Positions 1 to 44,496 of a DNA stretch of 64,000 nt are shown in pieces; positions within the stretch are counted from its first letter, which is position 1; every line of letters begins with the position of its first letter. Position numbers and translations under genes: made by a program. The notes under the pieces were generated by a model, which worked only from the letters and a program-made list of their open reading frames with translations, was not told the DNA's origin and did not search any database. This DNA is from Mobula birostris (taxonomy: Eukaryota): positions 46,982,150 through 47,046,149 of the forward strand of contig NC_092379.1 in NCBI RefSeq assembly GCF_030028105.1, read 5' to 3'.

Positions 1-420
1 CAGTTGATGTTTTAGGATGAGACTCTTCATCAGGACTAGGGGAAAAAAGATAAGTCAGTAAGAAGGCGGGGGGGGGGGGTGGAGGAATTAATACAAGATG
101 GTAGGTGATAGGTGAAACCAGGAGAGAGGGAGGGGATGAAGTTAAGAGCTTTTCCATTTCCTGGTTTCACCTATTACCTACTCCCAACTCTATACTTCAC
201 CCCCTCCCCCGGTTTCACCAATCACCTACCACCTTGTGCTACTACTTCCCCTCTCGCCATCAACTTCATCTACCTTCTCTTTTTTCCAACTCCAATGAAG
301 GGTCTCGACCCAAAACGTACTCATTACTTTCCATAAATGCTGCTTGGCCTGCTGAGTTCCTCCAGCATTTTATATGTGTCGCTTTGGATTTCCAGCATCT
401 GCAGATTTTCTCGTGTTTGT
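1..420. mobile_element. Penelope-like retroelement terminal fragment
   Basis: Contains gctgcttggcctgctgagttcctccagcatttt, which recurs next to GIY-YIG-coding remnants elsewhere (47960-48020, 49150-49200, 60700-60830). Confidence 0.6.
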
Positions 421-759
421 GGACAAGAGGGATTTTACAGCTATTGTGAATAATAATGAGTAAATAAGGCATGCAATCATTGCAGAATTGTCAGAAAATA
501 TTTCAATTTTTGAAATAAATTAGACACTTAGCGTCAATACCCTCAAAGCAAGCTTGTGAGACTCCTGAGAGTACAGAGACTAGACACTACAGATGCTGGA
601 ACACAGAAACATATAGCTCAGAAACCCATTTGACCCTTATACAATCTGTTTAGCAATCTAATCACGCTATGAATAGTCATAATACATTTCCAAACTGGTC
701 ATTTGAATTCGGCTGAAAATTACTTTACAGATTAAGTTCAGTCGTTACTGCTTTATTTA

Positions 760-1190
760 TAGTTTGCGGAATATTGCTGTGGCTAAACGCTTAAGAGATG
801 GCGGCATAAGAACCCACAATTCTCTTCAGCACAGCAATGGTTCTATACAGTGCTCGTATACCTACCGCATGCTCACCAGGACCGCGGTGCAGAGCGATGA
901 TTTTTGTTTGTGCAGCGCAGAATTAGAAGCGGTAGCAGGAAAGGAGAACTACACCGACTCACCGTCTGGCTCTGATCAAAGGTGGGCTCTACTTCCCGGA
1001 GCCGAGTCCGCACGTGTGATCCTCTTTATTTCAATAGGGTTCCGTTTACGCCGCAGAGCATTCTGGGTAGCGATAACCACCATTTTAAGCGTAATAATTC
1101 ATATATTCAAGTTTGATTTGCTAGGCCGATATTTTAGGCGGGGCAACAGATTATGTTTAACTGCCCCGCACCGCCTCGCCATTCTTGTAA
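760..1190 (-). promoter_or_regulatory. CpG-island promoter with a probable non-coding first exon of a minus-strand gene lying left of the window
   Basis: CpG-rich. ZNF143/Staf-type site TACCCAGAATGCTCTGCG (1069-1052, -). Strong donor CG|GTGAGT with GT at 962-961. YY1-type GCCGCCATCT at 805-796. Confidence 0.6.
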
Positions 1191-1329
1191 TTGTTTCCTC
1201 TATTGAAATTTTTTTTCTCTATTTATATATACAGCGTGGAGAAGGCCATTCCAGCCCTTAAAGCCACGCCACCAGCAATCACCGATTTAACCCTAGCCTA
1301 TTCACGGGGCAATTTGAGGGGTTTTTTTC

Positions 1330-1570
1330 ATCTAACTCCCTAAATTCACTTTTCAGGGTCCCAAACCTTTCCCTACCTCATCATTGGTGCCAACATGTGC
1401 CTGGGTCTGCTAAGACTCCCCCTTTAAAATGTCATGGACCCCTCCCGAGACGTCCTTTTCCCTGGCACCTGGGAGGCAATACCTGGATGTCTCTTTCACG
1501 CCCACAGAATCTCGTGTCGTCTCCTCTAACCAAGGAATCCCTCATCACTACTGCAGTCCTCTTCTCTCTT
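1330..1570 (-). mobile_element. CR1 LINE ORF1 (SGNH esterase-like) fragment
   Basis: Translation AVVMRDSLVRGDDTRFCGRERD resembles the CR1 ORF1 motif GDSIVRGTDRRFCG. Confidence 0.7.
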
Positions 1571-1629
1571 GGATAGGTGGATCCAAGTGATAAGGGGTGA
1601 TAGGCATATGTAAGAGGATTTAATAGAAA

Positions 1630-1885
1630 TAGTGAACTATACAAGTGTCGTGTGAAATGTGATTGAATGTCAAGCACAATCCTTTGGAACCTTCACACAA
1701 GGGAGAATCCATTAATTTGTTCTGACTGTGGGGATTCACTTGTTTGTCCCAAATATGCCCACCAATGAGTTTATATTGTGGAGAGATTATTCACTTGATC
1801 CAGCTATGGAGATTCACTTAATTATCCAACTTTTTAAAGACACCAACTTGTTTACACTGAACACATTTAAATGTCTGAATTACCT
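1630..1885 (+). pseudogene. Fossil C2H2 zinc-finger array (about 3 decayed fingers)
   Basis: cacacaagggagaatccattaatttgttctgactgtggg reads HTRENPLICSDCG. It is followed by ggattcact, caccaa, gagagattattcact and agacaccaacttgtttacactga (RHQLVYT), with stops and indels. Confidence 0.65.
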
Positions 1886-2386
1886 GAAAAAAATCTAAAC
1901 GCATAAATGGCATTTTTGAAGCACCAATACCTTGTTCATCTGCTCCAAGCTTGGGGCAGTAAATATAATAAAAATTAATTTGCACGGTTTTACCATTCAT
2001 CTCATCCAGGACTGAACTAGCAAGCATGAAACTGGAGTATGCCCTCTTATTGTCAATATCTCTGGGATATTCTTAATACGTCAACTAAATCACCTTTATT
2101 GTAAATATAATTTGGAAAAACTGCAAAACAACTGGTTGTTCAATGTGTAGATTGCAAATTGGAGAAATGGGACTGCTGGGATTGCTTTACTAGAAGCTAA
2201 ATTGGATCTGATGGGCCAAATAATCTCTAGTATCACAGTACATTTAGGCTATAGTGAGAGGGTCATTTTATACCTTCAGTGACAGCAGGTTCTTACACAA
2301 GCAAATCTTGTGCCAGTTGAGAGAACCAGGAAGGCCAATGCAAATACAGGGAATACACTGAGATTCTGGGAAGATGTAAAACTACA

Positions 2387-2437
2387 ATGAATTCCCAACC
2401 GAATATGAAGCAGCAGACTTTAAACTTCCAGTTTAAA
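2387..2437 (+). CDS. Candidate first coding segment of a putative spliced gene hosting PRMT5 (MNSQPNMKQQTLNFQFK)
   Basis: Acceptor ttttataccttcag|2280, ATG at 2387 with A at -3, upstream in-frame TGA, phase-0 donor AAA|gtaatt. Confidence 0.3.
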
Positions 2438-2932
2438 GTAATTTTGGTAATTATTCAGCAAAGATTTAATGCACCTCTGTAATAATACCAAGCCGACAAT
2501 TTTATGGCACGTATAACCCCTTTCACATCACCAGTGTTATGGAAGTATGTTTGCTTTATATGGCTATAGAACAGTATTATGTTTTAATATATCCCCCTTG
2601 GATGATATGCAATTCATACTTTTTATTTCTTGTGCATTATGAAATGGGTCCTTTCGTTTGGTGTTTAGAAATCAAATTTCAATGATAAGTCAGTCAAAAG
2701 CAGTCTTCCCCACCACAAGTCAGAAACTACTTCTTAAAGAAATTAGTGAAAATCAAGATCTGTTATCATAAAAAGCTATTGTGGTAGACAGTCTGATTGA
2801 GAAATCTCCAAACAAGAGAGATAGAATTTGTCAGTTCATTATTTACAGTGATCTGTGTGTAAATTGAACAGTTGATATAATTAAATGGCAGAACTGGACA
2901 ACCTGTTCATTTTGCTTTGCTTTTGATTTCAG

Positions 2933-3037
2933 TTCCCTGAGCGAATTTTCCAATCAGAGCTCCCACAATGGAGCCCATACCCAGACTGCTCCCTCTCACC
3001 GCAACAGAAGCCCATGTACTACCCTGGACAGCCTGAG
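2933..3037 (+). CDS. Candidate 105-nt internal exon (FPERIFQSELPQWSPYPDCSLSPQQKPMYYPGQPE)
   Basis: Strong acceptor ttttgctttgcttttgatttcag| and strong donor GAG|gtgagc. Length divisible by 3, open frame, non-repetitive sequence. Confidence 0.5.
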
Positions 3038-3229
3038 GTGAGCTTGCATAACCAAAAAAAATTTTCAAGCTCCCACAGTTATAAGGGTCCCTGGTTCCTC
3101 TTTCCACAGATGCTGTGAAAGTGACTCTCTTCTAGCAATTTCTATTCTATTCCACATTCCAGCAGCTGCAGTTTTATTTAGGATCAATAAAAAGGCCTGG
3201 CCAGATACATTTGTGGTACATTTATCTAA

Positions 3230-3753
3230 TATTTAGGAGGCCATTCAATGCACTGAGTCTATACCAGTTATCAGAGCAATCCCATCTCCCCACTTGTTTC
3301 CCTGCAACCACTTCTCTTAGAGACGTCGTCATCTCCACCCAGATTCTCCTATCACCCATCTATGTTAGGGGTAATTTACAGTAGCCAATTTACCTACTTT
3401 CTGCCAGCCAGTGGTGTAGTGGCATCCGCACTGGACTTTGAGGTGAGTGGTCCCGGGTTCGAACCTGGCTGGCTCCTTGCACGTTTTCCACCTGGGCTGG
3501 GTTGAGCGTCGAGCTAGTTAACTCGGTCTCGTTAAAAAAAAGACAAAACTGGTAAAGAAGCGGAAAGGTTGCCGCCGATGTGACACAAAGGCGTGGAAAG
3601 GAGCAACAACAACTTGCCTACTTTGGGATACAGGAGGAAATTAGAGTACCTGGGGGAAATCCACATGAAATGGATAAATTCCATGTGGCATTGCAGGCCA
3701 AAATCAAACACGGCTTGCTGGAGCCGTGAAGCAGCACTGCACCGTGCTGCCCC
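3230..3753 (-). mobile_element. Decayed V-SINE (HE1-like), interrupted by a younger SINE
   Basis: Minus strand begins ggggcagcacggtg and contains V-domain-like gtggatttcccccaggtactctaatttcctcc and ggctactgtaaattacccct. Confidence 0.6.
3401..3616 (+). mobile_element. tRNA-derived SINE with (CAA)n tail
   Basis: A box tggtgtagtgg, B box ggttcgaacc, tail gcaacaacaac, target-site duplication cctacttt at 3393-3400 and 3617-3624. Confidence 0.8.
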
Positions 3754-3754
3754 T

Positions 3755-3760
3755 TTTATT
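3755..3760 (-). terminator. Probable PRMT5 polyadenylation signal AATAAA
   Basis: First AATAAA on the minus strand, about 265 nt after the stop codon. Confidence 0.55.
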
Positions 3761-4025
3761 TTTGGATTTAAAGACTTTAAAGAGCTTTGCAACAAAATCA
3801 GTTTAATGTCAGTAACACAATGCATCATCACATATCCAACTGGGAGCCTCCCATTTTATACTCCCACCCACCCTCCAGCATTGGTAAACACATCATTTTG
3901 ACCCCTCAACACAGATCACAGTTCAGCAGCACGAGATAGGAGCCAATCCTTGTCAACTACCCCACCTATTGAACATGCACACAGGTACAAGTGGAACACG
4001 TCCAAAACTGCCAACGGGCACCATG

Positions 4026-5915
4026 TCACAGGCCGATGGTGTATGATCTGCCAGTAGGGTTGTGGATGGCAGAACACTCTGGCGAGGTCACTGCCCACTC
4101 ATACCACACCTTCTTGGGATTGGCACACCTCCAGAAGCGGGCACACACCGTCTCCCCTGCCTTCACAGGAATGGGTTGCTTCAGGGGGAAGAGGATGGGG
4201 AACCAGGAGTACATGCCCGGGGAGTGAGTCTCTGGGCGGATGCTCAGCGTCACCTCCTTGTACAGAGTGGTCTCAAAGTAGCCGGCAAACCCGTGCAGCA
4301 CAGTATTCAGCTTGATGTCAAACTCCAGGCACTTGTAGCGGTTGTTGTTGAAGACACCCCTGTTAGGGTGTGTGAAAGTGAAGCAGGGCTGAGGAGCAGC
4401 CAGCTGGTGGAAATTGTGCAGTCGAACCACATAGGGCATTTCAAACTGAGCCTCCGGGTCGCGGTCCTTCTCTCTGCTGGCGCGCACCTCGTTGTAAAGC
4501 TTGGACGAGGAGATGGGAGCGAGGAAAGAGGTGTACTGGCTGGGTATGCTTACTCCATCCTCCTTCAGGAACCTCTGCGCTCCATCCAAGCATTCTGGCG
4601 ACAGCTCGTTGTCTCCAAAGGAGCCCAGCAGCTCGCTAACGATGATGTCTGCCTTCACGGGCGCCTGCCAGTCCCTCATATCAGAGGAGACCACTGTCAC
4701 CTGGTCCCCCCACTCCTCATACTTCCAGTTCTGAAGCGTGACGACAGCATTGATGTTCTTCTCAATGGCGAACACTTTAATCTTCCGGTCAGCCTGTCGG
4801 GCAGCTCGCAGAGAGGCATTGACCAGGGGGCCCCGGCCCGCTCCCAGAACCATCAGGATATGAACGTTTGTGTCCTTCTCACTCTCCGGGATCCTGTCCA
4901 GCAGACACCTGTAGACAGCCTGTTGGTACTGCGAGTATTTGATCGGGTCTTTCTCGAAAATCTCGTAGGTCTGAGACTCCAAGTTATCCATGAGGGGCTG
5001 TAACGGGCACTGCAGGTAGTCTTCGTATCCCTTGGCGTAGGTTTCGTACGAGTTGGGCGGGGGTCGGTGCTGGTTGAGATATTCGAGGTACTGCAGGTAA
5101 GAGCGGAACTCCTTATCCGAGTGACGGTTTGACCCAGTGATCACGAACTGCACCTCCAGCTTGAAGAACCGGTAGATCAGGTTCTGATGCATCTTGGACA
5201 GGACGGGGAAGCCCTTCTTGTTGGTCAGGAAGATGCTGGTGGGCAGCACGGCCGCCTTGATGGGCTCCCCGAGCCAGCGGTCGATGACAGCGTCGGACGG
5301 CAGATCTGGCCCGACCTCGAGGGCCAGCGCGATCCTCTTGTTGTAGTCGCACAAGGAGCGGAAATGGTGCCACCACAGCCAGGTCGTCTCCTCCTCGCTG
5401 CAGTCCTCCGAGCGCACCACCGGGTCATTCTCTACTAGGTCCTCCCGCATGTCCTCCCAGGAGATGAGCGGCACCCGGATCCAGAAGATCGTGGAGTGGT
5501 GTCCGGTCAGCAGGTGGTTGATCAGCACCCTTGCCAAGTTACTGTTGTTCATCTGCTGCAGCGGCAGTAGGAACGCGGGGACACCGAGGTAGGCCGCAAA
5601 GTTCAGCTCCTGCAGCAGGGCCTCTTCCGAGTTTCTCCTCACCTGCTCGTCCTCTGAGTCCGCCTGTATCCATGGCGACAGCTTGCCCACGATGAGCGTG
5701 TTCCAGTCCCGGCCAGACAGCAACAGATCGGAGCGGGTCAGGGCCGCCGGCCGGTCCTTAGCCGGCCCCGCGCAGAACTCCCTCCTGAAGCGGGGGTGCA
5801 CGATGGGCATGCAGAGGAAATCGAATCCCTGCCCACCCGCTGTACCTAGGCTCTCCCCGACGTCTGGAACTGCATTCACATCGCGACCACTCGACACACG
5901 CGTCCCTGCCGCCAT
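4026..5915 (-). CDS. PRMT5: Protein arginine N-methyltransferase 5, single-exon, 629 aa
   Basis: N-terminal RVSSGRD and [11 protein letters not shown] motif [10 protein letters not shown], double-E loop [28 protein letters not shown] loop, C-terminal RSYTIGL. Start ATG at 5915 in strong Kozak context (aagATGg); the ORF-track start at 5954 is a TTG. Confidence 0.97.
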
Positions 5916-5944
5916 CTTCAACCGGAGGAGTTGCTTGGTGGCGT

Positions 5945-6200
5945 AGTCCGCCAATAAACAGCGGGGGTCGGCTCAAATCCTACCAATCAACGACGAGAGA
6001 TGGAGTCTCCACCAGTCAATGGCAGACAACGGATAACCCAGTCATCGGCGGCGGGCGACAGGCTCCACCAATCAGCGACGGGCAGCTGCGACGTTCGTCA
6101 ATCAACAACGAGCGAAAGACTCTTAGCCAATCAGCGTCGTTCTCAAGGAATAAATCCCTCCCAGTAACATGAAAAGAGCAGAAACGGCGGACGCCGGATC
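5945..6200. promoter_or_regulatory. PRMT5 promoter with phased CCAAT (NF-Y-type) box array
   Basis: CCAAT or one-mismatch boxes at 5951, 5983, 6012, 6038, 6068, 6098 and 6127 within a CpG island that extends into the CDS. Confidence 0.75.
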
Positions 6201-7110
6201 CGAGAAAAGGCAGTAAATACTGGAGACGGTTATCAGTTCAGGCAATAACTTTGAGAAGAGTATCGGCATCATGGAGAATATAGCACAGATTGGCCCGTCG
6301 TCCCATTTTCCTGTGTCTGGTCTATATCCTTTTCTATTCATGTATCTGCGCAAATGTTTTAAACATTGTAATTGTACCCGGCGCTGCAGCTTTCTCTCGC
6401 AGGCCATCCAGCAACCTCTGTGAGAAAAAGCTGCTCCCCGTGGCCTTTTTAAACTTTTCCCCTCTTACATTAAACGTATGTCCCTTTATCTTTGAGGGAA
6501 CTGTTCTGGGGAAAAGGCCATTTAACTGAAGTCCTCCAATCCTAGTAACATTCTTGTGAATCTTCTCCGGAAATTATCTAACCTTTCCAATAGCTGGATG
6601 ACCCAAACTACACAGAAAACTCCAAGTGTGGTCGCCAATGGCTTGTCCGGTTGCAACATGAAGTCCCATTGCCTGTACAGTACTCAGTGGCCTGATCAAT
6701 GGAGGCAGGCATGCCAAATGCCTTCTTCTCCGACCAGCATTAGACAATCTTGAATCTTGTCCATGCTGGCCACAATGCTTGCTCTTATTTGCCTGCATTC
6801 GACCCATACTTCTCTATGCCTTCCTACTTCTCCGAATGCCCTTTAAACATTGTAATTAAATCTGCATACACCACTTCCTCTGGCAAATGGTCCCATCAAA
6901 CCAGTCCCCTCCATATGAAAAACCTACCTTCCAGATCTACTTTAAAAATATCCCTCCTTACGCCGGTGCCTCCTAGTTCTGGCCTCACGGTTGGACAATG
7001 ACTCTCGATTAACAGACGGATCCATGGGGCAGATGACCTGTTTCAAGGCACCTGAGGCCCTTCAGATACACTGCACCCAAGTCCTGTTTTTTCTCTGCCC
7101 TGTTCATCAG

Positions 7111-7377
7111 CCAGCCAGTTATGCTTACCCCAGTGATGACATCCTACTCCCTCAAAGCCCAATCCAACCCTTGAGATCCAAATCACAGCCCTTCCTGATG
7201 CTCTTGGGCTCCTACTCCCACCCCAGGGCACATGTTATTAAGCTTAATCATGTAAGGCCTAGAACCACAGTGAATGGGTGCCTTGGACATCAGCCACAAT
7301 ACCATTTTGCAGCAAAGAATGTCAAGAGAGAAACATATGTGGTTCCTCAGATATCCAAAAGAGTATGGATCCAATAA
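7111..7377 (+). CDS. Candidate terminal exon of the putative host gene (PASYAYPSDD...KRVWIQ*)
   Basis: Acceptor ttttttctctgccctgttcatcag|, phase 0, 88 open codons, TAA overlapping AATAAA at 7373-7378. Confidence 0.4.
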   Translation, partial: PASYAYPSDDILLPQSPIQPLRSKSQPFLMLLGSYSHPRAHVIKLNHVRPRTTVNGCLGHQPQYHFAAKNVKRETYVVPQISKRVWIQ

Positions 7378-8009
7378 ACTAACAATAATTCCAGCTAAAT
7401 GTTCAGTGGACTCAGAGAGAGGAAAGGGACACCAAAGGACTCTCACCTAGGACTGGAGGTGAAAGTATCCCTATTCCACCCTCACTTGTGGCTGGATGAA
7501 ACTCGCCATGGAATGAAAGGCTGAGACTAGCCCAGAAGAATAGCTGATGGCCCTAACGGAAACAAAGATTCAGACAGAGGTGTGAAGTTACAAATGTCTT
7601 AATAGCAAACAGGTCATTAATTAGTCTTCCTGTGAAATCAGAACTTGACAAATTGTCTTTGGCATAAAGATGATGTGTTGATAAAATATAAAAGTATTAA
7701 TCATCATTCTAATGAGGGAATCATCAACCGTAGCAAAAACAAGTGAAAGAACAAAGACGATTAACAGCAGAAATACTTTTAACGGAAAGCTTGCTAGTGA
7801 ATCAATAGACTGCAGTACTGAGCAAATCCCTTCCCACACATAGAACGGGGTAGCACAGGAACAGGCCTGGAGCTCACAATATAAGCAGGATATCAAATTC
7901 ACTTCTACCTGCACATGCTCTATATCTCACCATTCCCTGCATATTAAGGGACCCGCCCAAAAGCCTCTTGAACATCACTGTTATATCTATTCCCATTACC
8001 ACCCCTGGC

Positions 8010-8830
8010 AGCATCAGGTTTAATATGACTGGCATACATGTATCATGAAATTTGTTGTTTTGTGGCAAAAGTACATTCCAGCATATAACAATAATAAAAT
8101 AAACTATAAATTACAATAAGTATATATAAAAATTAAATTAAATAAATAGTGCAAAGAAAGAGGAAAAAAGTGAGGTAGTGTTCATGGGTTCATTGTCCAC
8201 TCAGAAATCAGATGGGGGAGGGGAAGAAGATGACCCTGAAATGTCGAGAGTGTGTCTTCAGTCTCCTGTACCTCCTCCTTGATGGCAGCAATGAGGAGAG
8301 GGCATGTCCTGGGTGATGGGGGTCCCAAATGATGGATGCCTCCTTTTTGAGGCGTTGTCTTTTGAAGGGGTCCTCAAAGTTGAGAAACCTAGTGCCCATC
8401 ATGGAGCTTTTTTTTTGATACTGTATAGTGGCCCCTCCATACCAGGCAACCAGTTCAAGTGCTCTCTACGGTACATCTGTAGAAATTTGTGAATGTCTTT
8501 GGTGACATATGAAGTTTCCCCAGACTCCTGGTAAAATATAGCCACTGTTGTGCATTCTTTGTAATTGTATCAATATGTTGGGCCCAGAATAGATCTCCAG
8601 AGATGCTGTCACCCAGGTACTTGAAACTTCTTACCCTTTCCACTGTTGATCCCTCAACGAAGAACTGATATCTAGTGTGTGTTCCTTCGACTCCCCTTCC
8701 CGAAGTCCACAATCAATTCCTTGGTCTTACTGACATTGAGTGCAAGGTTGTTATTGTGACAGCAACCAGCTGATCTATCTTGCTCCTATACACCTCCATG
8801 TCGATATCTGAAATCCAGACAACAAACACT
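8010..8830 (-). mobile_element. Rex1-type LINE 3' fragment
   Basis: Remnants VERVRSFKYLG and FYRCTVES; 3' UTR like the copies at 16940-19035 and 57225-58015. Confidence 0.85.
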
Positions 8831-8869
8831 GCGTACAAAATCCTGCCAGGAAATCGTCTCTTATTATAA

Positions 8870-11210
8870 ATGCATGTCCTCTGGTATTTGACAGGAAAAA
8901 GATTCTGACTGGCTTTCTCATCTATGTCTCTCATGGAATTAGGAACTTCTGTCTGGTCTCCCTTCAGTCTCAAATGCTCCATACCAGTGAACCCCTTCTA
9001 TATCCTGTCCAGAGCCTCCACATCCTTCCTAATGGGGCAACCAGAACTACACAGAAAATTACATTCCAGGTTCAGTCTAATCAATGTCTCATACAGTTGC
9101 AACACGACTTCCTGACTCTTCCACCAGTGTGCTGACTTATGAAGGTAACCATGCCATACACATATTTTACCACTTTATCTGCTTATGTTGTTACTTTCAG
9201 GAAGCTATGGTCTTGGACAACAAGATCCCTCTGTACATCAATAGTGTTCAGCATCCTGTTGTTAACTGTATACTCTCACCTTATACTTAACCTCGCAAAG
9301 TCCAATACCAAGCACTTGCCCAGGATAAATTCCGCCTGTCATTTCTCCACCCATTATCTCTAACTGATATGTATCCTTTGACAACGTTCTTCACTGTATG
9401 CAACTCCTCCAGTTGTTGTGTCATCAGTAAATTTACCACCCAACCCATTTCATCCAAGTCATTCATTACAAACAACAGAGACTCCAACACTGATTCCCAT
9501 GGAATGACACTGCTCACAGACCTCAGTCTGAATGTCACCCACCCACCACTAACCTTTGGGCAAGCAAGTTCTGATTCAATCCACCAAGTTACCATGAATC
9601 CCATATATCTAAATCCTCCAGATCAGCCTACCTTGATGGACCGTGTACAGTGCAATCCACTGTCCTACCCTCAACAAACACTTTTGTCACCTCAAAAATA
9701 GTCAATCAAATTTGTCAGACATGACCTGCTTCAGCCATGCTGACTGTCCCTAATTAGCCCATGCTTTTCCAAATGTGACTGAATTCTGACCCTAAGAATC
9801 CTCTCCAATAACCTCCCTTGCACTGCTGTCGCTCACCGGCCTATAATTCCTTAGATTATCCATATTTCCCTTCTAAAACAAAGGAAGAACAGTGGTTATT
9901 CTCCAGTACTCTGGGACCTCACCTGTGCCTAGAAAGGATACAAAAGTCTTCCTGACGGCCCCGGTAATCTCCTCTCTCTTGCCACTCTCAATAACCTGAG
10001 ATAGATCCCATCGGGCCTTGGAGACTTATCCACCTCAATGTTTTTCACAAGACCAAATACCACCTCCTTCTTATTCTCAGAATGACCTACGATACAAATA
10101 TAGATGAGCTGATCCCATTATCCTCCATGCCCTTCTCCTTGGTACATACAGATGCAAAGTATTCATTAAATACCTCATCCACATCCTCGTGCTCCAAGCA
10201 TAAATTCCTTCCTTTTTCCTTGAGTAGTCCTACCCTCTCCCAAGTTATCCTCTTGCTTTTAATGCATGTAAGATGCCCTGGGTTCTGCTTAATCTTACTC
10301 ATCAAGGATATGTCATGTCTCCTTTTGGCCCTCCGAAATCCGTGCTTGAGTTCTCGCTAGCTTCCTTTGTATTCCTCAAAGACCCTGACTGACTTCAGCT
10401 TCCTAAATTTTACATATGCTTCCATTTACTTTTGACTAACTGGAACGTGCTTCTCCTGAACCGTGGTCAGCCGGATTTGAACCAACTCCGACATTCTGAT
10501 GTGGACTTGCTCAATAGCAGCTATTCCCAATTTATTCTCTCTAGCTTCTGCCTAATAATATTACGATTTACCCTCCCAACTTTCTAACGTGGTGCAGACT
10601 TACCTTTACTTTTAACTATCTTAAAATTAAAGAGACGTGATCATTGCTTCCCAGGTCTCTCACTGAAATGCCAGTCACGCAACCAAGCTCATTTCCCAAA
10701 ACAAGTTTCTGCAATGTCCATTATCTAACCAGACTATTCACAGTTTTAGGAAACCCTTGTGAATGCACAACAAATTCCACCCCTTCTAGTCCTTTGGTAC
10801 TAAGGAATTCCCTCAATATTAAAGTCACCTACTTCTGCAACGCTGCTGCCTTTATATCTTTCATAACCTGTCAACATGTCTGTCCCTGTACCTCCTGGTG
10901 ATTATTGTGTGGCCTATATTACAACCCATCAGTCTGATGTCACCTTTCCCATTTTTGAGCTCCACCCATAACTATCAAAAGACCCCCCCCCCAAATTTAG
11001 TATAATCAGCAAACTTGTTAGTCATGTCAAGGACATTCATATCCAAGCCATTTACATAATTCACTGACCCATGAGGTACCTCACTAGTCACAGGCCTATC
11101 CTTCTACTCCTGGACTCACTGGAATGCTGCACCAGGAGTAATCTAGAGATCACTACCCTCCAGGTCCTGCATTTTCATTTCTTGCCCAACTCCCTATACT
11201 CAGTCTGCAG
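8870..11210 (-). mobile_element. Decayed CR1 LINE
   Basis: VFNEYFASV, SVIPWESVLESLLF (GVPQGSVLGP equivalent), ORF1 remnant near 11100-11200. Confidence 0.85.
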
Positions 11211-11369
11211 GTACAAAGGGAATGATGAGATATGGGTTTAGCATACCAAAATGACACTGAGAAACTGTAAACGGTCAACCATTATTGAATGGTAGTACAG
11301 TAAAGAGGTGCTGAATGGCCCACGCCTCTGTTTGTTTTGATCTTAATGTTTTCACTAAGGAGCTGTTGG

Positions 11370-11752
11370 CACGTGGCCAAGTGGTTAAGGTGTTCGTCTA
11401 GTAATCTGAAGGTCGCTAGTTCGAGCCTTGGCTGAGGCAGCGTGTTGTGTCCTTGAGCAAGGCACTTAACCACACATTGCTCTGCGACGACACTGGTGCC
11501 AAGCTGTATGGGTCCTAATGCCCTTCCCTTGGACAACATCAGTGGTGTGGAGAGGGGAGACTTGCAGCATGGGCAACTTCTGGTCTTCCATACAACCCTG
11601 CCCAGGCCTGTGCCCTGGAAACCTCCCAAGGCACAAGTCCATGGTCTCACGAGACTAACGGATGCCTATAAAAGATGGGAACATGCCCAACAAGCCCACG
11701 GTGCACCATTACACCCAGGGGATCAATTAATCCACTAATGGATGCCTATTAT
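11370..11752 (+). mobile_element. tRNA-headed CORE-type SINE, tail type A
   Basis: A box tggccaagtgg, B box agttcgagcc, CORE-like gtgtccttgagcaaggcacttaacc, 14-bp TSD taaggagctgttgg at 11356-11369 and 11753-11766. Confidence 0.85.
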
Positions 11753-12809
11753 TAAGGAGCTGTTGGATGGGGTGATTACATGAGTAGTTTCAACACTAAG
11801 AGAGTTATAAGGTGTGATCATCATTCTCCATCAGCATTTTGCAAATGATTATTATCCTTCCTTAATAGTAATCTGTGCAATCTCACCGTTCACTGCAGAC
11901 AGGGGGGGAGCAGATGAATGCAGATGCAGAATTGCAAACACTAAGCATTGACCATTCTTCCCTCCACAAATACTGGCAGACCTACTGTTTCTTTCTCTAT
12001 CCAAGCAGTACTACGGCCAATAACCTCAGCTGAACCAGGTGTGAATCCCAGCCCTCCCCAATGCTGCGTCGGGGTCCTGCGATGTGCCACTGATGCTGGT
12101 GTGGGGAGGCCGGTGCTGGGCAGGCCAGGGGGAGCACTGCAATGGCTCACTTGGGTGCGGGCACCATCTGCTCCTTGGTGTTGGCAGACCACCTGGATCC
12201 ATGTACTCTCTCACAATCTCCTGTGAGAAAATCTTTTAAAATTCATTCCACATTCTCTCCCGATTCAGCAAGGGGTATTCATAAATGTATTTGCAAACAA
12301 AAGGAGGCACTATACGTGTGCTAGGCCACATGAAATCACTTTATTAAGAGTTATATAAAACATACCATACAGAAAGAAAAATAAATGATTAATGAAGCAG
12401 TAGTACAGAGACAAAATAATACTTATCCACTTAATGAACTGATCTGCAAAATGACAGAGGGAACACAGATATGACAAACTTTCATCTCTCTCTCCCTCAC
12501 CACCTCTAACCCAGCGACCCAGCCTGAGAAGCTTCCCTCTTGCATAAAGAAATTGCCCCCTTTTATACCCTTCATAACACCTTGCACTATCATTTGCCCA
12601 TGACAAGGCACCAACTGGTACCTGCACATGTACAATGATCGGTCCTTCCCCAAACAAACATGTATTCATCATTATCTATTCTCAAGGCTGTAGACTTGTA
12701 CTCCTTTCCTCAAAACATTCGCACTTTTAAGCTAACACAGTTTTGTCCCAGAAACTACCATTTTACCTTAGCATATCCCAAGGGGGAATCAAATTTAACT
12801 CTTTCCTTA

Positions 12810-13340
12810 AGACCATAAGACATAGGAACAGAATTAGGCCATTCAGCCTATCAAGTCTGCTCTGCCATTCAGTTGTGGCTGATTTACTATCCTTCTCTAC
12901 CCCATTTTCCTGCCTTCCCACCAAAAACTCAGACACACTTACTAATTAAAACCTGTCTACCTCCACTGTAAATAGACTGACAGATTTGGCCTCACAGCTG
13001 ACTGTGGCAATGAACTTTACAGCGTGCCAATCACTGGCTATATTCCTCCTCATCTCTTTTCTAAAGGGATGTCCTTCAATTCTGAGCCTGTGCCCTCTGG
13101 TCCTAGAGCCTCCCACTATAGGAAACACCTGCTCCGCATCTACTCTATCTAGGTCTTTCAATATTCGATAAGCTTCAGTGAGATTCTCACCCCCCCGCTG
13201 ACCCATTCTTCCAAGCTCCAGTGAGTACAAGCCCAGAGCCATCAAACGTTCCTCATAAGTTAACCATTTCAGTACCAAATCATTCTCGTGACCCTCCTCT
13301 GGATCCTGTCCAGTGCCAGCACATCCTCACTCAGATAAAC
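12810..13340 (-). mobile_element. CR1 (HER1-like) LINE 3' end
   Basis: LTYEERLMALGLYSLE and SRTRGHRLRI; tail tcttatggtctta. Confidence 0.85.
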
Positions 13341-13559
13341 TTTGAACACTCCTGCTGCTGAATGTGGCGGAAAGTGTGGTCTCCCTCCCTCCTTATATAG
13401 TTGCCCAGTTCTCCTCAGTAGGAGATTTCTCTCTGACAACAAACTGGGTAGTTGACCTTGGAACTTGTGTAGCCTAATTGAAATAAAGGGGGCACAAAGC
13501 TTTCATCAGATTCACCAGAAGGTGATGAGAGAGACAGCCTCCAGCAATGGCCCCAAAAG

Positions 13560-15750
13560 GTGAATTGCCAAAGGACTGGAGGATGCTTTATTTAAGAAGG
13601 ATGTCTTTACTTAAGAAGGATGCCAAAGAAAATCTGGGAATTATAGACAAGTAAGTCTATTATCAGTGCAAGATGCGTTACTGGAGAAGACACTGAGCAC
13701 CCAGGTAGGCATGCATTTGGAAATACAGGGGTCAATTATGCATAGCATTGCTTTGTGTGTGGGAGATCATATTTCATGAATTTGATTGAATTGTTTGGAG
13801 TAAATGACCAAGAAGGTCGATGATAGCATGATGGTAGATGTGATATGTATGGACTTCAGTAAGGCCTTTAATAAGGACTTGCACAGCAGGTTGCTATGGA
13901 AAGTTGGATTGGATGATATGTAGATCACAATTGGCTTGATGGTTGGAAGCAGATGGAAATGGTGGAAGGTTGTTTTTCAGACTGGAGGCCTTGACTAGTG
14001 GTGTGCCTCAGGGGTCAGTGCTAGGCCCATTGTTATTTGTCATTTATATCAAAAATTTGAATGAGAATGTACAAGGCACAGTTAGTAAGCTTGCAGATGA
14101 CACTATGGTGGGTGTCGTTGTCAACAGTGAAGATGGCTATCTAGAATTACAGTGGAATCTTGATTAGCTGTGTAAGTGGGCTGAGGAAAAGCAGATGGAG
14201 ATTAATTCACATAAATACAAAGAGTTACGTTTTGGCAGGACAAATCAGGGTAGGACTTTCACAGTAATTGTATTGGAGAGTTGTAGAATATAGGAACCTT
14301 GAAGCGCAAGTACATGCTTTCCTGAAGGTGGCATCACCAAGTAGATAAGAAGGTTAAGAAGGCATTTGCCATGCAGGCAAATGTTAACAAGTTGGGGTGT
14401 TATTGTTGTGATTGTACAAAACTTTGGTGAGGCTTCTTTTGGAATACTCTGTTCAGTTTTAGTCACCCTGCTCTAGAAGCGATATCATTAGACTAGAAAG
14501 AGTGCAGAACAGACTTATGAAGATGTCGCTAGGACTCAAAAGACTGAGATACAGAGAAAGGTTGAGCAGGCCAGGACATTATTCATTAGAGCGTAGGAGG
14601 AGGAGTAACATTATGGAGGTGTATAAAATCATGAAGGTTATAGATGACTAATTCATGCAGTGTTTTTCCCAGGGGTGGGGAATCAAGAATCAGAGGGTAT
14701 TGCTTTAAGGTGAAGGCAAAAAATGTAATAGGAACCTAAGATACAACTTTTTCACCCAGAGGGTCATGAGTACAGTGGATTGGATCATTGGTTAATTGGA
14801 GTAGCAACATATTTGGGACAACTGTTAAAGAACAAAAGCAAATCAAGAAATTAGCGGGCTTCCCTTCTTGTTCAGGACACAATGCTGCTTAATTGAGACA
14901 GGAGACTGTTGCCAACCAGTTCTAACTAGAGTTAGTCACCTGAACTTGTATGGCCACTGTGCTTAGAGTGAAAAGTTTTCAAATAATGTCAGTTATGTGT
15001 GTTTGTGTTTAAAAGCAGTGATTTCTGTCACTGATAGTTGGCAAGAAATAAGCAGCAAGACAACTCAGAACTGTTTTGTTCACTGTGGTCTCAAGTCTTC
15101 ATGCTTGGAGATGCTAAAAACGACCAGGACTGAAAATGAAATAATTTCACAACCTCAACAAGTTAGGAACTTAGAGTAATTTGAAGTGATTGAAAATCAT
15201 CTTAAATATTACAATGAAAATGAAGATTAGGAGGATGATATAATTAAAAGCACAGTTTGAAGGTAGCCCATTATCTCCACTAAGTGCCTGTGCTGAATTT
15301 GTTCATATACAATTAATCTAAAGAACCTGGGAGTGTACACTGGATGAATTCCTCAATCAATAAATGTTAGGAACTAATTCACAGTTTTATGGTACTGTAG
15401 TCATATTGGTAGAGTTCTAATTTGTTCTGAACTTTATTCAAATATATAATTTGTTACTCAGTTAAGTGGTAGTTTGCCTTTTTTATAACTATTTCCATGA
15501 ACCTTCAGCTAATTGAGGCAACTGCTTAATTGGGCCAAAGTGTACTGGTCCCAATGTGTCCCTGTTAACCGGAATCTACTGTATATGGAATGAATTGTCA
15601 GTGGAAGTGGTTGAGGCAGGTATATTAATAACATTTAAAAAGTACTGGAATGGAAAGTGCTGAGGGATATGGACCAAATGCAGGCAAATAGGACTAGTTT
15701 GGATGGACATCTTGTTTGGAATGGATCAGTTGGGCTGAAGGACCTGTTTC
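13560..15750 (+). mobile_element. Decayed CR1 LINE RT and 3' region, interrupted by a DNA transposon
   Basis: SGVPQGSVLGPLLFVIYI and KLADDT; the CR1 sequence resumes after 15583. Confidence 0.85.
14773..15581 (+). mobile_element. Tigger/pogo-like (Tc1-mariner) non-autonomous DNA transposon
   Basis: TA|cagtggatt ... aatctactg|TA termini. Internal DSWQEISSKTTQNCFVHCG resembles the pogo DDE C-terminus W..V...TI.NCF. Confidence 0.8.
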
Positions 15751-15769
15751 CATAAGACCATAAGATATA

Positions 15770-16045
15770 GAGAGTGTGGTGTGTGGCCAAGTGGTTAGGG
15801 CGTTGGACTAGCAATCTGAAGGTCGTGGGTTCAAGCCTCAGCCAAGGCAGCGTGTGTGTCCTTGAGCAAGGCTCTTAACCACACAATGCTCCAGTCTACC
15901 CAGCTGAGAATGAGTCCCGGCAAAAATGCTGGGGGTTAACCTTGCGATAGACTGGCGTCCTATCTGGGTGGGGGGAGTCACTTCATGCCACGGAAACAGG
16001 CATAAGCACCGGCCTGATGGGCCACAAGGCTCATGACAGACTTAA
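15770..16045 (+). mobile_element. tRNA-headed CORE-type SINE, tail type B, inserted in a CR1 tail
   Basis: Same head and CORE as 11370; TSD ataagatata at 15760-15769 and 16046-16055. Confidence 0.8.
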
Positions 16046-16939
16046 ATAAGATATAAAAGCAGAATTAGGCATTTTGCCCATCGAGTCAGCCTCCCCTTTC
16101 ATCATGGCTGATCTCAGCCCCATAAAACCATGAAATATAGGTACAGAATTAGGCCATCCTGAGCTGCTGCTGCACTTACTTAACCTGTTCCACATGAGAC
16201 AGCCCATCAATGCCATCCCTCAAAAGTTCCTGTCAGGCTCCAAAAACTGGTGTGGTGCCCAAGCAGACGTCTTTCTCCAAGTTCAAGTATGGGGAATGTA
16301 CTGGTGAACACTCAGTCTGATGCGAACAAGAGCAAGGAATCGGCACTCCGGAGGGTAGTGTTCACCAGGGTGCCAGTGGATCACAGTAAGAGAAGGGCCA
16401 CTGAGCTTACTGGAATGGTTTGTGCTGTGAGCACATTCCCAGCTACTTTATATGTAGCTCTTTATGCATGTGTAATAATCTTTAATAATATAATAACATA
16501 ATATTTATAATATTACTGTTACCATCAGGAAGGAGATACAGAAGCCTGAAGACACACACTCAGTGATTTAGGAACAGATACCTCCCCTCTGCCATCTGAT
16601 TCCTGAATGGACTTTGAAGCCTTGCACACTACCTCACTCTTTTTTTTAATATACAGGATTTCTGTTTTTGCACATTTTTAAATAATCTATTCAATATACG
16701 TAATTGACTTACTCGTTTATTTATCATTATATTTTTTTTTTTTTTTTTTCTCTCTCTGCTGTACCATGTATTGCATTGAACTACTGCTGCTAAGTTAACA
16801 AATTTCATGTCACATGCTGGTGATAGTAAATGTGATTCTGATTCAGAGTCTGATAATATTGTACAAAATATATTCATGGTTTTCCGACAGCTGATGAGTC
16901 TTTCATGTTGATCTTTTTACTGCACAGATCATATTATAA

Positions 16940-19035
16940 CCCCCCAGTACTCCTGTTACTGCTACACTACCACCAAGAACAGTTACCATGCCATCCCATG
17001 CCCACAGTTTGGAAAATCTGATCGCCTGGCTGTACTTCTACTTCCTGAGTATTGGCAGATACTGAAGACTGCAGCACCTACAGAACTACTTTCAGCCGGT
17101 GCACTGGACAGTATTGAGGGATTTGTCTTTGCTACAGTTGGCAGTGACTTCATTAAAACCAGCATGGATGAGTGTGTCCTGATGAGAACATACTGTACGT
17201 ACCCAAATCAAAAGCTGCAGATGAGCCAGAAGGTTCATAGTCTGCTGAGGGTTAGATGTGCGGCATTCAAGTCTGGTGATCCAGGACTATACAGGAAGGC
17301 CAAGTATGGAGGGCTATCTTAAGAGCAAAAGAACAATTACAGGCAGAATCAGATGCAGCGTTTGCAGGGCATTGCCTTTTACAAAACGAAACCTAATGTC
17401 ATGAAGAGCAGTGATACTTCATTCCCACGTGAGCTCAACACCTTTCATGCAAACTTTGAAAGGGAGAATGAAACTACGGCACCCAGTGACCCTGTGATCT
17501 CTATCCTGGAGGCTCATGCCAGATCATCTTTCAAGAAAGTGAACCCTAGCAAGGCCACAGGCCCCAGTGGAGTACTAGGAAGGGCTATGAAAACTTGTGC
17601 CAAACAACTAGCAGGTGTGTTCAAAGACATTTTCTCTCTCTCATTGCTACAGTCAGAAGTTAGCACTGCTTCAAAAGAGCAACAATCATACCAGTGCCCA
17701 AGAACAGCAGGGTGAACTGCCTTAGTGACTATCATCCAGTAGTTCTCACATCAATGGTGATGAAGTGCTTGGAAAGGTGGTTATGGCTAGAATCAACTCC
17801 TGCCTCAGCAAGGACCTGGACCCACAGCAATTTGCTTATCACCACAATAGACCTACAGTGGAAGTGATCTCATTGGCTCTTCTCAAGACCTTGGATCACC
17901 TGGACAATACTAATGCTTATGCCAGGCTACTGTTTGTTGACAACAGCTCAATGTTTAACACAATCATTCCTACAGTTCTGATCAAAAAGCTCCAAAACCT
18001 GGGCCTCTATACCACCCTCTTCAATTGGATCCTCGGCTTCCTCACCAGAAGACTACCATCTGTGCAGATCAGAAGTAACACCTCCACCTCACTGATAATC
18101 AACTCTGGCACATCTCAAGGATGTGTGCTTAGCCCACTGCTCTTCTCTCGCTACACCCATGACTATGTGGCTAGGCACAGTTCAAATGCCATCTGTTTGC
18201 TGACAACATAATTATTGTTGGCAGAATTTCAGAAGGCATTCAGGAGTGAGATCAGCGGATGGAATGGTATTGCAGTAACAACCTTGCCCGCAACATCAGT
18301 AAGAACAAACAATTGATTGTGGACGTCAGGAAGAGTAAGATGTGGGAACACACACCAGTCCTCCTCGAGGAATCAGAAGTGGAAAGGGTGAGCAATTTCA
18401 AGTTCCTGGGTGTCAACATTTCTGAGGATCTATCCTGGGCCCATATTGATGCAGTTACAGAGAAGGCACGACAGCAGCTATATTTCAATAGGAGTTTGTG
18501 GAGATTTGGTATGTCACCAAAGACACTCACAAATTTCTACAGATGTACTGTGGAGAACATTCTAACTGGCTGCGTCACCGACTGGCATGGGGGGAGGGGC
18601 TACTGCGCAGGATCAAAGGAAGCCGTAGAAAGTTGTGAACTCGGTCAGCTCCATCATGGGCACTAGCCTCCCCAACACTCAAGTCACCTTTAAGGAACGA
18701 TGCCTCAATACGGCAACATCCATCATTAAGGAACCCCCCCCCGCATCACCCAGGACATTCCTTCTTCTCAATGCTACCATCAGAGAGGAGGTACAGGCGC
18801 CTGAATGCACACACGCACTGATTCAGGAATAGCTCCCTCCCCTCTGTGATCAGATTTCTGAATGGACACTGAACCCATGAACGCTACCTCACTACTATTT
18901 TTCTCTTTTTGCACTTAACCTTTTTGATATATAATGTATATACGTATTGTAATTCACAGTTTTTATTATGTATTGCAATGTATTGTTGCTGAATACCGTA
19001 ACAACATATGCCAGTGATATTAAACCTGATTCTGA
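16940..19035 (+). mobile_element. Rex1-type LINE, 5'-truncated and frameshifted
   Basis: [60 protein letters not shown]; tail ctgattctgattc. Confidence 0.9.
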
Positions 19036-19054
19036 TTCCCATCTCTCTTGTTAG

Positions 19055-19480
19055 AGTATAAGACATATGTAGGAACAGAAGTAGGCCATTTGGCCCATTG
19101 GATTTACTTTGCCATTCAATCATGGGTGATTTATTATCCCTCTCAACAACATTCTCCTGGTTTCTCACCATAACCTTTGACACCCTTACTAAACCAGAAC
19201 CTGTTAACCTCCATTTTAAATATACCCACTGACTTGGCCTCCATAGCCACTTGTAGCCATGAATTCCACAGATTCACCACCTTGAAGAAATTACTCATCA
19301 TCTGTTTTTAAGGGACGTCCTTGTATTCTGAGGCTGTGCTCTCTGGTCTTAGACTCCCCCACCATTGAAAACATTCTTCCCATGTTGACCTTTCAATATT
19401 TGATAGATTTCAATGAGATTCACCCCTTATTGCTCTAAACTTCAGCAAGTACAGGCCTAGACCTATCAAATGCTCCTCAT
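19055..19480 (-). mobile_element. CR1 (HER1-like) 3' end
   Basis: Same tail as 12810-13340. Confidence 0.8.
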
Positions 19481-20229
19481 ACGTTATTCTGATCAATGGT
19501 TATGCTGGTTACATGGTCAATTGACCACTGTAAAATTACCTTTTGCATGGGTGCCAGTGGGACATTCATGGTACAATTTATGGGTATGTAAGAAAGTGGG
19601 TGAGAGAAATAAGCAGGGGAATTAGGATTGATGTGATTGCTGTAAGAGCTGCATAGACTGATGGACCGAATTGTCAAACTTGACATAAAGTATAAAACAG
19701 TCAAGGGGGTTTCAATCTCAGATCTACAGAGGTACATCCCAACTTCAGAGAACAATCATCACAGTTCTGGGACTATAAAGCAACATTCCAGCCCTGCAGT
19801 TCCAGAGGTAATTCCAGGCCCAGTGTGGATAAGCGTTCCTATTCCACAAATAAAGATAATCGTTCAGACTCAAAGACTGCAGAAAGGTATTCAACTACCG
19901 GACTGTACAGAAACATTCCAAATTTGTAAATATTAGGGCACTATTCGAACACAAACTTGTAAAGTGGCTTTTCATTGCGCTCCAACATCAGGACTGTAGT
20001 GGCGAATTCCAAAATCTCTACTGGAGATAAACTTTCCAAATCTGGAACTGTGGAGTTTCAGGGTGGTTGAGGACAATGCTATCTAACAATAGAACAGTCA
20101 AATTCTGACACAGTAGACAGACATTCCGTGTCCGGGACATTAGTGGTATTCCAGAACCACGCGACAATGGAGGGACATTCCAACTCAAATATTTAAAAAT
20201 CACTTTTTATTAATTTAGTAACCGTGCAA

Positions 20230-20770
20230 AGAGAGTGACCTCGAGTCATCCATTAATGGCGGTAGCAATACCCAGAATTCTCTGGACATTGAACCACCCC
20301 CATCCACGGCAAATGATAGCGCCTGATGAGTGCGCATGCTCTACATGAGCCTCGGTTCATGCTGATACCGCATGCGTCAAAGCTCCTGCGGGTGAGCCGG
20401 ACGCCGTGGAAACGGGAGAAGTCAGCGGGTGATGCCGGGTAGGGGGGCGGGGGAGGGGCTGCACCATACATTTAGCGACGAAGGGGATTTACCGTCTATT
20501 CGGCTGATGCCGCGGCTCTGATCCGAGCACAAAGCAGCGCGCTCGGTGTTTCTGAGGCCCACACCCGCCACACTGAGGGACCGTAGGCCGCACTGCGCAC
20601 GCTCGTTTCAAACACACGCTTCGGCCACGAGACCCCCGCTTCTTGGCGCGTTGCCCCCCTCCCCGTCTGCAGGAAATAGGCCATTGTCCAGCCCGCCAGG
20701 CATCCTGGGTATGGTCCTTCGCCATTTTCGAGACGACTGGCCAGCGTTAAAAATAAGTTTTTAGGGTCCA
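20230..20770 (+). promoter_or_regulatory. CpG-island promoter and non-coding exon 1 of the + strand ZNF gene
   Basis: YY1-like aatggcgg at 20255, ZNF143-like TACCCAGAATTCTCTG at 20269, NRF1-like TGCGCATGCT at 20331, donor CGG|gtgagc at 20392, GC box at 20441, YY1 cgccatttt at 20720. Confidence 0.7.
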
Positions 20771-22586
20771 TGTTGACACATCAGCTGATACCAATTTTAC
20801 TGCTTTTCCCTAGATAGATTTTTTTTTAATATAGTATATCTGCGTTTTCGGCATAACTATTAAATCTGCTGAGAACTTATTTCAAGGTGCTGTTCTCCCT
20901 GCTGGAAATTCAGACTGAAAAATAATATTGTCCCTACATCTTCTGATTTCGTCGTCAATTACCTTAAAACATAGCATTAAATACCGCAATAACTTCACCC
21001 TCTAACCTCATTTGTTCCAGGCTGAATAATTGTAGCTTCTCCAATTTCTCCTGATAACTGATGTCAGGCATTGTTGTGAATTTCTCCTACAGGCAGGCTT
21101 TAAACAACTTAATAAAGTTAAGCAGAGCAATACAATTGAGGCCAAATTAATATTGACGTGAGACTAGCTGCTGGAATCGGATGCAAATAATGGGCTGCTA
21201 AAGGAGCTCAGTGTCTGTGGAAAGAAATGGGCAGTCACTGCTTGGGATCAAAACCCTTCATCTGGACTGAAAGTCTAAATGAGAGACTTCCTCCAGCAGC
21301 TTGCTTTTTGCTCATGATCAATATTCTTGTGTAAGGCTTTGACCATAAGATATAGGAGCAGAATTAGGCCATTAGGTTCATTGAGTCTGGTCTGCCTCTC
21401 CATAAGCTAATGTTGAGACTTCTGTCATAGTAACAGGGAACAGGAGCAGGTTATTCAGGCTTTAAATCTGCTGCAGTTAAGAGGACCAGAACCTGCTCCT
21501 ACCTTTACCCTTTATCTTTAAAACATATATTTACTTCCTTGAAAATGTTCAATGACTTGGCCTCGACTGCCTTCTCTGCAGTGGATAATTTCCCTCTTGG
21601 TGAAGAACTTTCCCTTGATTTGAATTTCCAATGTGCTTCCTCATTTCCTGAGTTGGTAACTGGAAGGTTCTGGAATCTGTGGCCACCAGGACCATCCCCC
21701 CTGTACCTTACCTGTCTGGTTCTGTTACAATTTCATAGGATTCTGTAAGTTGTGCTCTGATTCTGATATAAGCCCTGAATACAGTCCTGCCATCTAAGGA
21801 ATCAAGCTGGCAAACCTTTGTTATACCTCGTCCATGGCAGCAAAATCTTCTGATGAGGAGACCAGAACTCCAGATGGGATCTCAGCTCTTCTGACCCCTA
21901 TATAGCCATGACAATACATCCACATTCTAGTACTCAAATTCTCTTGCAATAAAGGCCAATAAAACATTTTTGTGCATTACTGCCCAATGTTATTTATAGA
22001 TTTCTATTTGGGTGATTAGATCAATAAATTGATTGAAGCAAACCCCATGTGGTGCATAAGGAATTGAGTAACTATTACAGTCATTCAATCTGGGTTAAAT
22101 TACCAAGTTCTGTAACGTGAATCATCTTTTATTGATTATTTGCCAACTTAAAATCATGGCCTAATTTCTGTACCTCTTCAGAGCCCCTGGACCTCGCCTG
22201 GCATCATAATGTTGACAAGTATGGATTAATTGCTTAGAAGCCAGCAGAAAGAAAGCTCAGGGAGAGGCAGCACTGTGCTGGAGTAGTCAACTACACGTGA
22301 GTTGCTTTGAATCTCTGAACAGCAATCTACTGTTTCTGGTTTGTTTACAGGGTGCAATACAGCTAGCATCATTGCCCAACCCAGTTCTTGATTATTAGTG
22401 GCATAAACTCTATCTTTCAACAATGCACTCTCTGTAGAGATGAGACCTTTCTATTGCTGTTCTTGATGTCAGTACCACTTGCAAGGCGAACAGTAACGTT
22501 CTCAAATAGCTTTTGAAAAGTTGGTGACTGCTGACAGAACTGCAGTTTATGTGCTGAAAGTACTCTCACGTTGCTGCTCCTGATTA

Positions 22587-44280: not shown

Positions 44281-44496
44281 TGGGTTGTGAAGTGTGCCAT
44301 TTAGTTTGGGATGGGAAGAGTAATAAATTAATAAATTCCACAAGAAAACGGAATCACTTTAGTAAAATAGAGAACGAGTAAATGCAAATGATCTAATGTA
44401 CAATTATGTAACCCTCTGTTCCTACAGTGCTTTTTGTATTGCCGCAGATTCCAGTATTTGAACTCTAGAACGTCCATGATGTATTTGTGTATGTGT

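Follow-up and report, generated by a model that had tools for sequence, protein, structure and literature searches.

The PRMT5 gene and its surroundings

The subject of this study is a stretch of 64,000 nucleotides, hereafter called the window, from Mobula birostris (contig NC_092379.1, positions 46,982,150 to 47,046,149 of the forward strand), part of a contig 148.7 Mb long in a genome of 4.0 Gb; it contains a minus-strand gene for the arginine methyltransferase PRMT5 together with three exon-like segments on the plus strand (segments 1 to 3). A sequence-only reading had proposed that PRMT5 is nested antisense in an intron of an unrecognised, spliced, Pro/Gln-rich gene formed by these segments, and that PRMT5 may have been retroposed there. 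The features belonging to PRMT5 are as follows.

4026..5915, minus strand: PRMT5 coding sequence, 629 amino acids (aa), intronless and intact, with the PRMT5_TIM, PRMT5 and PRMT5_C domains all over cut-off
5916..6300, minus strand: 5' region of PRMT5 and its likely promoter, a CpG island (observed/expected about 1.0-1.1) with four CCAAT and one ATTGG
2496..4025, minus strand: 3' untranslated region (UTR) of PRMT5, with short forms to 3655-3876 and a long form likely reaching about 2450-2500, antisense over segment 2
3255..3750, no strand assigned: repeats of the short interspersed element (SINE) type within the long 3' UTR, from local repeat matches; one is a tRNA-derived element (about 3405-3580)

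In a profile search, a single 629-codon frame without introns was found to carry the TIM barrel, methyltransferase and oligomerisation domains, and the three domains together with orthology identify the gene as PRMT5. The protein is 99.4% identical to that of Mobula hypostoma, 98.7% to those of Hemitrygon and Hypanus and about 95% to those of skates (batoid range 94.8-99.4%), with 88.4% identity to catshark and 78.1% to mammal. The residues that we take to be the catalytic glutamates and the active-site phenylalanine are retained in the alignment. The gene lies between segments 2 and 3, on the opposite strand to both, as the nested arrangement had it.

All shark and ray rows covering the relevant sites also share two changes near the presumed active site relative to bony vertebrates: a Pro following the S-adenosylmethionine-binding glutamate is replaced by Ile or Leu, and a Phe ahead of Ser-Trp in the C-terminal domain is replaced by Tyr.

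Copy number and genomic location of PRMT5

Three genome searches, with full-length PRMT5, its methyltransferase domain and its TIM barrel as queries, scored 23, 5 and 120 candidates and returned one match each; a parent gene is thus absent from the readable assembly, in which runs of N lie beside the ancestral block. In human, the neighbours of PRMT5 are HAUS4, C14orf93, PSMB5 and ACIN1, according to the statements on this locus in PMC5428979 and PMC10340279. In M. birostris, exons of HAUS4 and of a proteasome subunit are grouped with DUF4616 on the same contig about 29.8 Mb from PRMT5, which places the gene at a new genomic location relative to HAUS4, PSMB5 and C14orf93. Of 400,000 bases at the HAUS4 block, 193,189 are readable, and a tblastn comparison of three PRMT5 proteins with these gave no match at E<=1. 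Conversely, no ancestral-block gene besides PRMT5 was recognised among open reading frames (ORFs) of at least 170 aa in 264 kb around PRMT5. The GC content is 0.435 in the PRMT5 region versus 0.518 at the HAUS4 block.

At the block itself, C14orf93-like (L035:8570-9190), PSMB5-like (L036:3398-4294) and HAUS4 (L028/L029) exons occupy an island of GC-rich sequence, about 110 kb in size, with long runs of N on either side. This island adjoins more zinc-finger genes, its gene order is unlike that of human, and AJUBA was not recognised there.

PRMT5 in other batoids, sharks and bony vertebrates

Eight named batoids have one full 629-aa PRMT5 protein each, all in one cluster among the best 120 of 2151 matches, and these proteins are encoded on contigs of 46-136 Mb. 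For sharks, three of the four PRMT5 clusters with contig data have at least one member on a contig of 25 kb to 5.2 Mb, and five of the six shark proteins seen are shortened against mammalian numbering: two models begin at residue 78, two at residue 43, and one stops at residue 458, while a deletion in a carp model begins at residue 77. Such shared start and end positions are as exon boundaries would give. Bony-vertebrate isoforms, moreover, are without the blocks 105/106-149/150 (three models) and 260-313 (two models). From these protein models we infer that sharks keep a spliced PRMT5.

In a tree of 23 database proteins, the 11 batoid rows formed one clade (support 100/97), nested with short branches in a shark-plus-batoid clade (100/100); the window's own protein was left out of the tree, and a 99.4% identical one stood in for it. 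One Hemitrygon protein named 'PRMT5-like' has two accessions, which may represent two UTR variants or two copies.

The high batoid protein identity indicates purifying selection, and contigs extending into the 3' UTR in 4/4 placed sequencing runs point to expression, the RNA status of these runs being the tool's guess; none of the 22 listed runs is on record as RNA.

The 3' UTR and promoter of PRMT5

The contigs came from 4 of the 22 listed runs, whose tissues are not recorded, and were placed on 600-3990; across the 22 rows, the listed runs had shares of up to 0.38, as PRMT5 mRNA alone would give. The 3' UTR contigs end at 3876 (X1), 3844 (X6), 3655 (X5) and 2496 (X19). The X19 contig (3303 nt; organism H, of a type not on record) extends from 3990 to 2496 without a splice, spanning segment 2 and both its ends, and continues on the PRMT5 side for another 1809 letters. 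At 2470-2465, 26 nt past its end, lies a minus-strand ATTAAA; other minus-strand poly(A) hexamers are ATTAAA at 3807-3802 and AATAAA at 3760-3755. Although contigs carry no strand information, the X19 contig is likely the long PRMT5 3' UTR. It differs from the window at 49 of about 1495 sites, of which 38 are listed.

On the plus-strand segments the contigs show presence only and so offer no evidence where they are lacking: segment 1 was covered in 0/4 runs, segment 2 was uncovered in X1, X5 and X6, and the joint 2437/2933 was seen in none. A faint X5 signal (depth about 2) at 942-1055 was too weak to use. At the other end of the gene, the far ends of the X5 and X6 contigs would fall near 5935-5945 if colinear, by length arithmetic only, and the promoter island, when compared with four other CpG islands, resembled none of them.

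Within the SINE-type repeats, many unrelated contigs pile up at 3403-3517, and a weak tRNA match lies at 3405-3476. The SINE may also account for a T-rich tract next to it, near 3755. The survival of a poly(A) remnant and a target-site duplication is not expected in an old insertion.

The three plus-strand segments

The segments and the CpG island upstream of them are described as follows.

2280..2437, plus strand: candidate exon 1, with an acceptor at 2280, ATG at 2387, a weak donor at 2438 and an in-frame TGA 5' of the ATG; single copy
2933..3037, plus strand: candidate exon 2, 105 nt, phase 0, with a strong donor; its exon signature is the best, and it is probably a real or fossil exon
7111..7377, plus strand: candidate exon 3, either terminal (its stop overlapping AATAAA at 7373) or internal at 7111-7251 with a donor at 7252
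700..1230, no strand assigned: single-copy CpG island with no gene assigned, holding a motif that we take to be YY1-like at 796 (plus strand) and a donor-like site at 982; a candidate antisense promoter

The structure described in the sequence-only reading was recovered in full: with lengths of 51, 105 and 267 nt, each divisible by three, the segments 2387-2437, 2933-3037 and 7111-7377 carry GT/AG ends and join in phase 0 into 140 codons plus a stop overlapped by the AATAAA at 7373. All three segments are single copy in the genome. Of the donors, that at 2437 is weak, with about 5.8 sites per kb scoring as well, and that at 3037 strong (0.19 per kb). The donor at 7252, missed in that reading, would turn segment 3 into a 141-nt phase-0 internal exon, and no further exon was recognised among the acceptors listed downstream of it. 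The coding-like sequence supposed to follow 7377 was not confirmed; the open pieces there are of 36-58 aa and without a Pfam match.

The chance expectation was estimated with splice-site frequency tables by counting three-exon chains that begin with ATG, run to 140 codons or more and have sites no weaker than those here, on both strands of 264 kb in 5.2-kb bins. Equally strong chains occurred in 9 of 101 strand-bins, the window's chain included, and such a chain had a poly(A) hexamer within 300 nt in 8. When the thresholds were relaxed by 1 bit, the counts for the chain, the hexamer and an AATAAA within 40 nt were 17, 13 and 3 of 101; at looser thresholds, 30 kb of locally unique DNA gave 20 exon candidates. 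The window's chain is uncommon, not rare, and, chosen as it was after the fact, goes only modestly beyond chance.

The composition had been called continuous across the junction that skips PRMT5, which holds only in part. Both segments are C-rich, with a C content of 0.37 in segment 2 and of 0.36 in the opening 141 nt of segment 3, and the 6-12 kb stretch shares this richness throughout (GC skew -0.14 to -0.19), but proline makes up 23% of segment 2 and 11% of segment 3. Segment 2 has a GC content of 0.55 against 0.32 and 0.39 in its flanks; this AG/GT-bounded step of 0.20 is the biggest among 30 strong candidates, the next being 0.14 and 0.08. Segment 3 has no GC step. The codon score of segment 2 was reached by 16% of 1500 GC-matched open stretches and that of segment 3 by 93%, i.e., segment 3 has no codon bias; a held-out PSMB5 exon scored 0.53 versus 0.10 and -0.36 for the two segments.

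In organism H, segment 2 has 4 listed substitutions in 105 sites versus 8/437 before and 13/298 after it (Fisher p 0.54). Two of its three changed codons are non-synonymous, with no stop and no indel, and the open frame would survive four random changes 74% of the time. This comparison, small in numbers, gives no sign of coding constraint on segment 2.

In protein searches, segment 3 came out without a homologue in collections with ray proteomes. None was found by word searches among proteins of 48-154 or 155-2000 residues, nor, bar one artefact, in a full phmmer scan of 1.84 billion representatives. As the collection contains PRMT5 of eight named batoids and the PRMT5 annotated in this very genome, an annotated ray protein with segment 3 should have appeared. 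The Atlas search gave a best value of 0.80 for segment 3 and nothing for segment 2, which also had no credible match in Pfam, PDB (E 3.5 only) or the own genome. Pfam gave nothing credible on 12 open pieces, and a 20-base pattern had 0 matches in metagenome contigs. An exact look-up of segment 3 found nothing, and neither did that of two zinc-finger ORFs, so it was useless as a control.

Several candidate likenesses were rejected. The artefact in the phmmer scan, P0001 (E 3.7e-8), is a single-member translation of a tandem repeat in which a 27-residue match of 44% recurs five times; an own-genome match to segment 2 (E 4) was without exon ends or matching neighbours; and a likeness to BOLL, POU2AF1 and DAZAP2 found no support and was dropped.

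Rfam found nothing at gathering score on 1-3990 and 5916-24000, so that no known small RNA family lies in these parts of the putative introns that would mark a host of small nucleolar RNAs or microRNAs. At 61-261 of the window, an imperfect inverted repeat within a repeat scores weakly against many microRNA models, far below gathering scores.

Neighbouring features

Elsewhere in the window, two long ORFs lie near CpG islands of their own.

23646-24797, plus strand: C2H2 zinc-finger ORF, near a CpG island at about 20000-21000
41949-42743, minus strand: C2H2 zinc-finger ORF, near a CpG island at about 43900-44400

Downstream of the window (L013-L019) there are ORFs resembling long terminal repeat retrotransposons, long tandem repeats and a 317-codon frame like a G-protein-coupled receptor, all named by appearance only.

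Interpretation

We hold with considerable confidence that PRMT5 in the window is an orphan retrogene. As the sequence-only reading had suspected, its origin by retroposition is supported because it is a single intronless copy, away from its ancestral neighbours, with spliced-looking orthologues in sharks. The orphan retrogene is probably common to rays and skates. A single retroposition in a batoid ancestor, after which the parent was lost, would explain this most simply. The fuller reading, which we adopt with moderate confidence, is that of an orphan retrogene with a recruited CpG-island promoter, beside one or more non-coding or decayed antisense exons and without a conserved protein. Its observed base consists of the single exon, the three domains, the single match, the distance from the block, the batoid conservation and the unspliced contig.

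The sequence of events may be pictured as follows. A spliced PRMT5 mRNA from the HAUS4/PSMB5/C14orf93 block would have been reverse-transcribed and inserted into an AT-richer zinc-finger region, where the retrocopy would have gained its CCAAT-rich CpG-island promoter. The parent would then have been lost, and the copy would have come under the parent's constraint. Later, a longer PRMT5 3' UTR may have read into flanking DNA, through segment 2. The plus-strand segments would be exons of a non-coding or decayed antisense transcript and not of a conserved 140-residue protein. A non-coding antisense transcript over the locus, or a non-coding or decayed antisense host, is plausible, and the CpG island at 700-1230 would be the most likely origin of any transcription on the plus strand.

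Several points weigh against this reading. The antisense transcript itself is putative, no transcript of the plus-strand segments having been seen. Three features point to a coding origin more than this reading allows: the phase-0 lengths of all segments; the AATAAA at the stop, which lies within 40 nt of a chain in 1 of 101 bins, that of the window's chain alone; and the two-fold pyrimidine codons of segment 2, which end in C in 8/8 cases. For segment 2, the best candidate, the searches covered Pfam, Atlas, PDB and the own genome, and its substitution counts rest on the 38 listed of 49 differences. The shark introns and the intronless state of other batoids are read from protein models, and the whole-protein genome search applied a stricter first look. 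Furthermore, the readable part of the ancestral block is an island of about 110 kb, enclosed by runs of N of at least 94 kb and at least 113 kb, so that a parent PRMT5 could hide there, and intron loss in place followed by rearrangement may instead have occurred, the block and PRMT5 being on one contig.

The strongest competitor, which we nonetheless regard as rather unlikely, is that the splice-like sites arose by chance in unique DNA beside the retrogene, with no plus-strand splicing, and that segment 2 is simply part of the long PRMT5 3' UTR. Equal chains in 9/101 bins, the 20 exon candidates in 30 kb and the unspliced X19 contig agree with this, and the C-rich strand skew accounts for the proline; the GC step of segment 2, at the top of 30 candidates, and the upstream CpG island without an assigned gene argue for a real or fossil exon.

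Quite unlikely is that the segments form a genuine Pro/Gln-rich protein gene, restricted in tissue and evolving fast, with PRMT5 and the PRMT5 promoter antisense in its second intron, and that this gene is transcribed through PRMT5 in a tissue outside those sampled. Its open phase-0 chain with a stop/AATAAA overlap unique in 101 bins at these scores, the GC step and C-ending codons of segment 2, whose frame, acceptor and donor have no listed break in organism H, and the single-copy state of every segment would fit such a gene. Against it stand the lack of a homologue of segment 3 although ray proteomes are in the collection, a codon score of segment 3 at or below background, the absence of conservation of segment 2 beyond its flanks in a frame that chance would often spare, the weak first donor, and the contig spanning both ends of segment 2 unspliced. 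A protein-coding host for PRMT5 is unsupported, because segment 3 has neither homologue nor codon bias, segment 2 is conserved like its flanks in the one relative compared, and the contig is unspliced; the searches above found no host ORF conserved as a protein. Such a host is not refuted either, given the exon signature of segment 2 and the unrecorded tissues of the four runs. We judge as decidedly unlikely, too, that rays and skates draw all their PRMT5 function from a retrocopy lodged in a Pro/Gln-rich gene, so far undescribed and quick to evolve, whose transcript is still spliced past PRMT5 with its promoter and overlaps the long 3' UTR of PRMT5; if true, host transcription could lower PRMT5 in one tissue, such as gonad.

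Weakest of all, and very improbable, is that PRMT5 is not an orphan retrogene, its spliced parent lying in unassembled DNA or its introns having been lost in place via complementary DNA before the gene moved: the runs of N, the shared contig and the doubly accessioned Hemitrygon protein would suit this, but the presence of only one batoid cluster, with one protein per species, in the best 120 of 2151 matches, the lack of other recognised ancestral-block genes (ORFs of at least 170 aa) in 264 kb around PRMT5, and the difference in GC (0.435 versus 0.518) speak against it.

Mammals cannot do without PRMT5, which is central to PIWI-interacting RNA (piRNA) function in the germ line and to the assembly of small nuclear ribonucleoproteins, and its level in mammals is tuned via the splicing of a detained intron. 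If the orphan retrogene reading is true, a lineage-wide swap to an intronless PRMT5 with a new promoter would be a natural test of the need for introns, and batoid PRMT5 would add to the signs that, in sharks and rays, retrocopies have taken the place of genes from GC-rich regions. There would be nothing unusual in a non-coding antisense partner for the retrogene.

Comparison with known systems

A literature search found no paper on an intronless or retrogene PRMT5 in sharks or rays. A preprint on vertebrate retrocopies (10.64898/2026.06.26.734816) covers cartilaginous fishes, and its main text is without PRMT5, although its supplements could list this copy. The antisense geometry is like that of human PRMT5, which has an antisense RNA, PRMT5-AS1, according to the statement on this locus in PMC5428979; as the locus differs from human, this is an analogy and not a homologue. 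In contrast to nested antisense genes, the host transcript here is putative, the geometry being the proposal of the sequence-only reading.

Compared with vertebrate PRMT5, a type II arginine methyltransferase, the window's gene has the same three domains and 78% identity to mammal; unlike it, the gene is intronless and away from HAUS4, human PRMT5 having 17 exons.

Orphan retrogenes have been described by Ciomborowska et al. (PMC3548309) and Carelli et al. (PMC4772013), and the main text of the latter reports a CpG-island promoter in 9/10 mammalian orphan retrogenes. The published sets are human or mammalian, with main texts that do not include PRMT5, whereas the present case concerns rays and skates, with parent loss shown for the readable assembly only. 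The window's PRMT5 resembles the orphan retrogenes of these main texts in its single exon, a parent that is not found, strong conservation and a CpG-island promoter.

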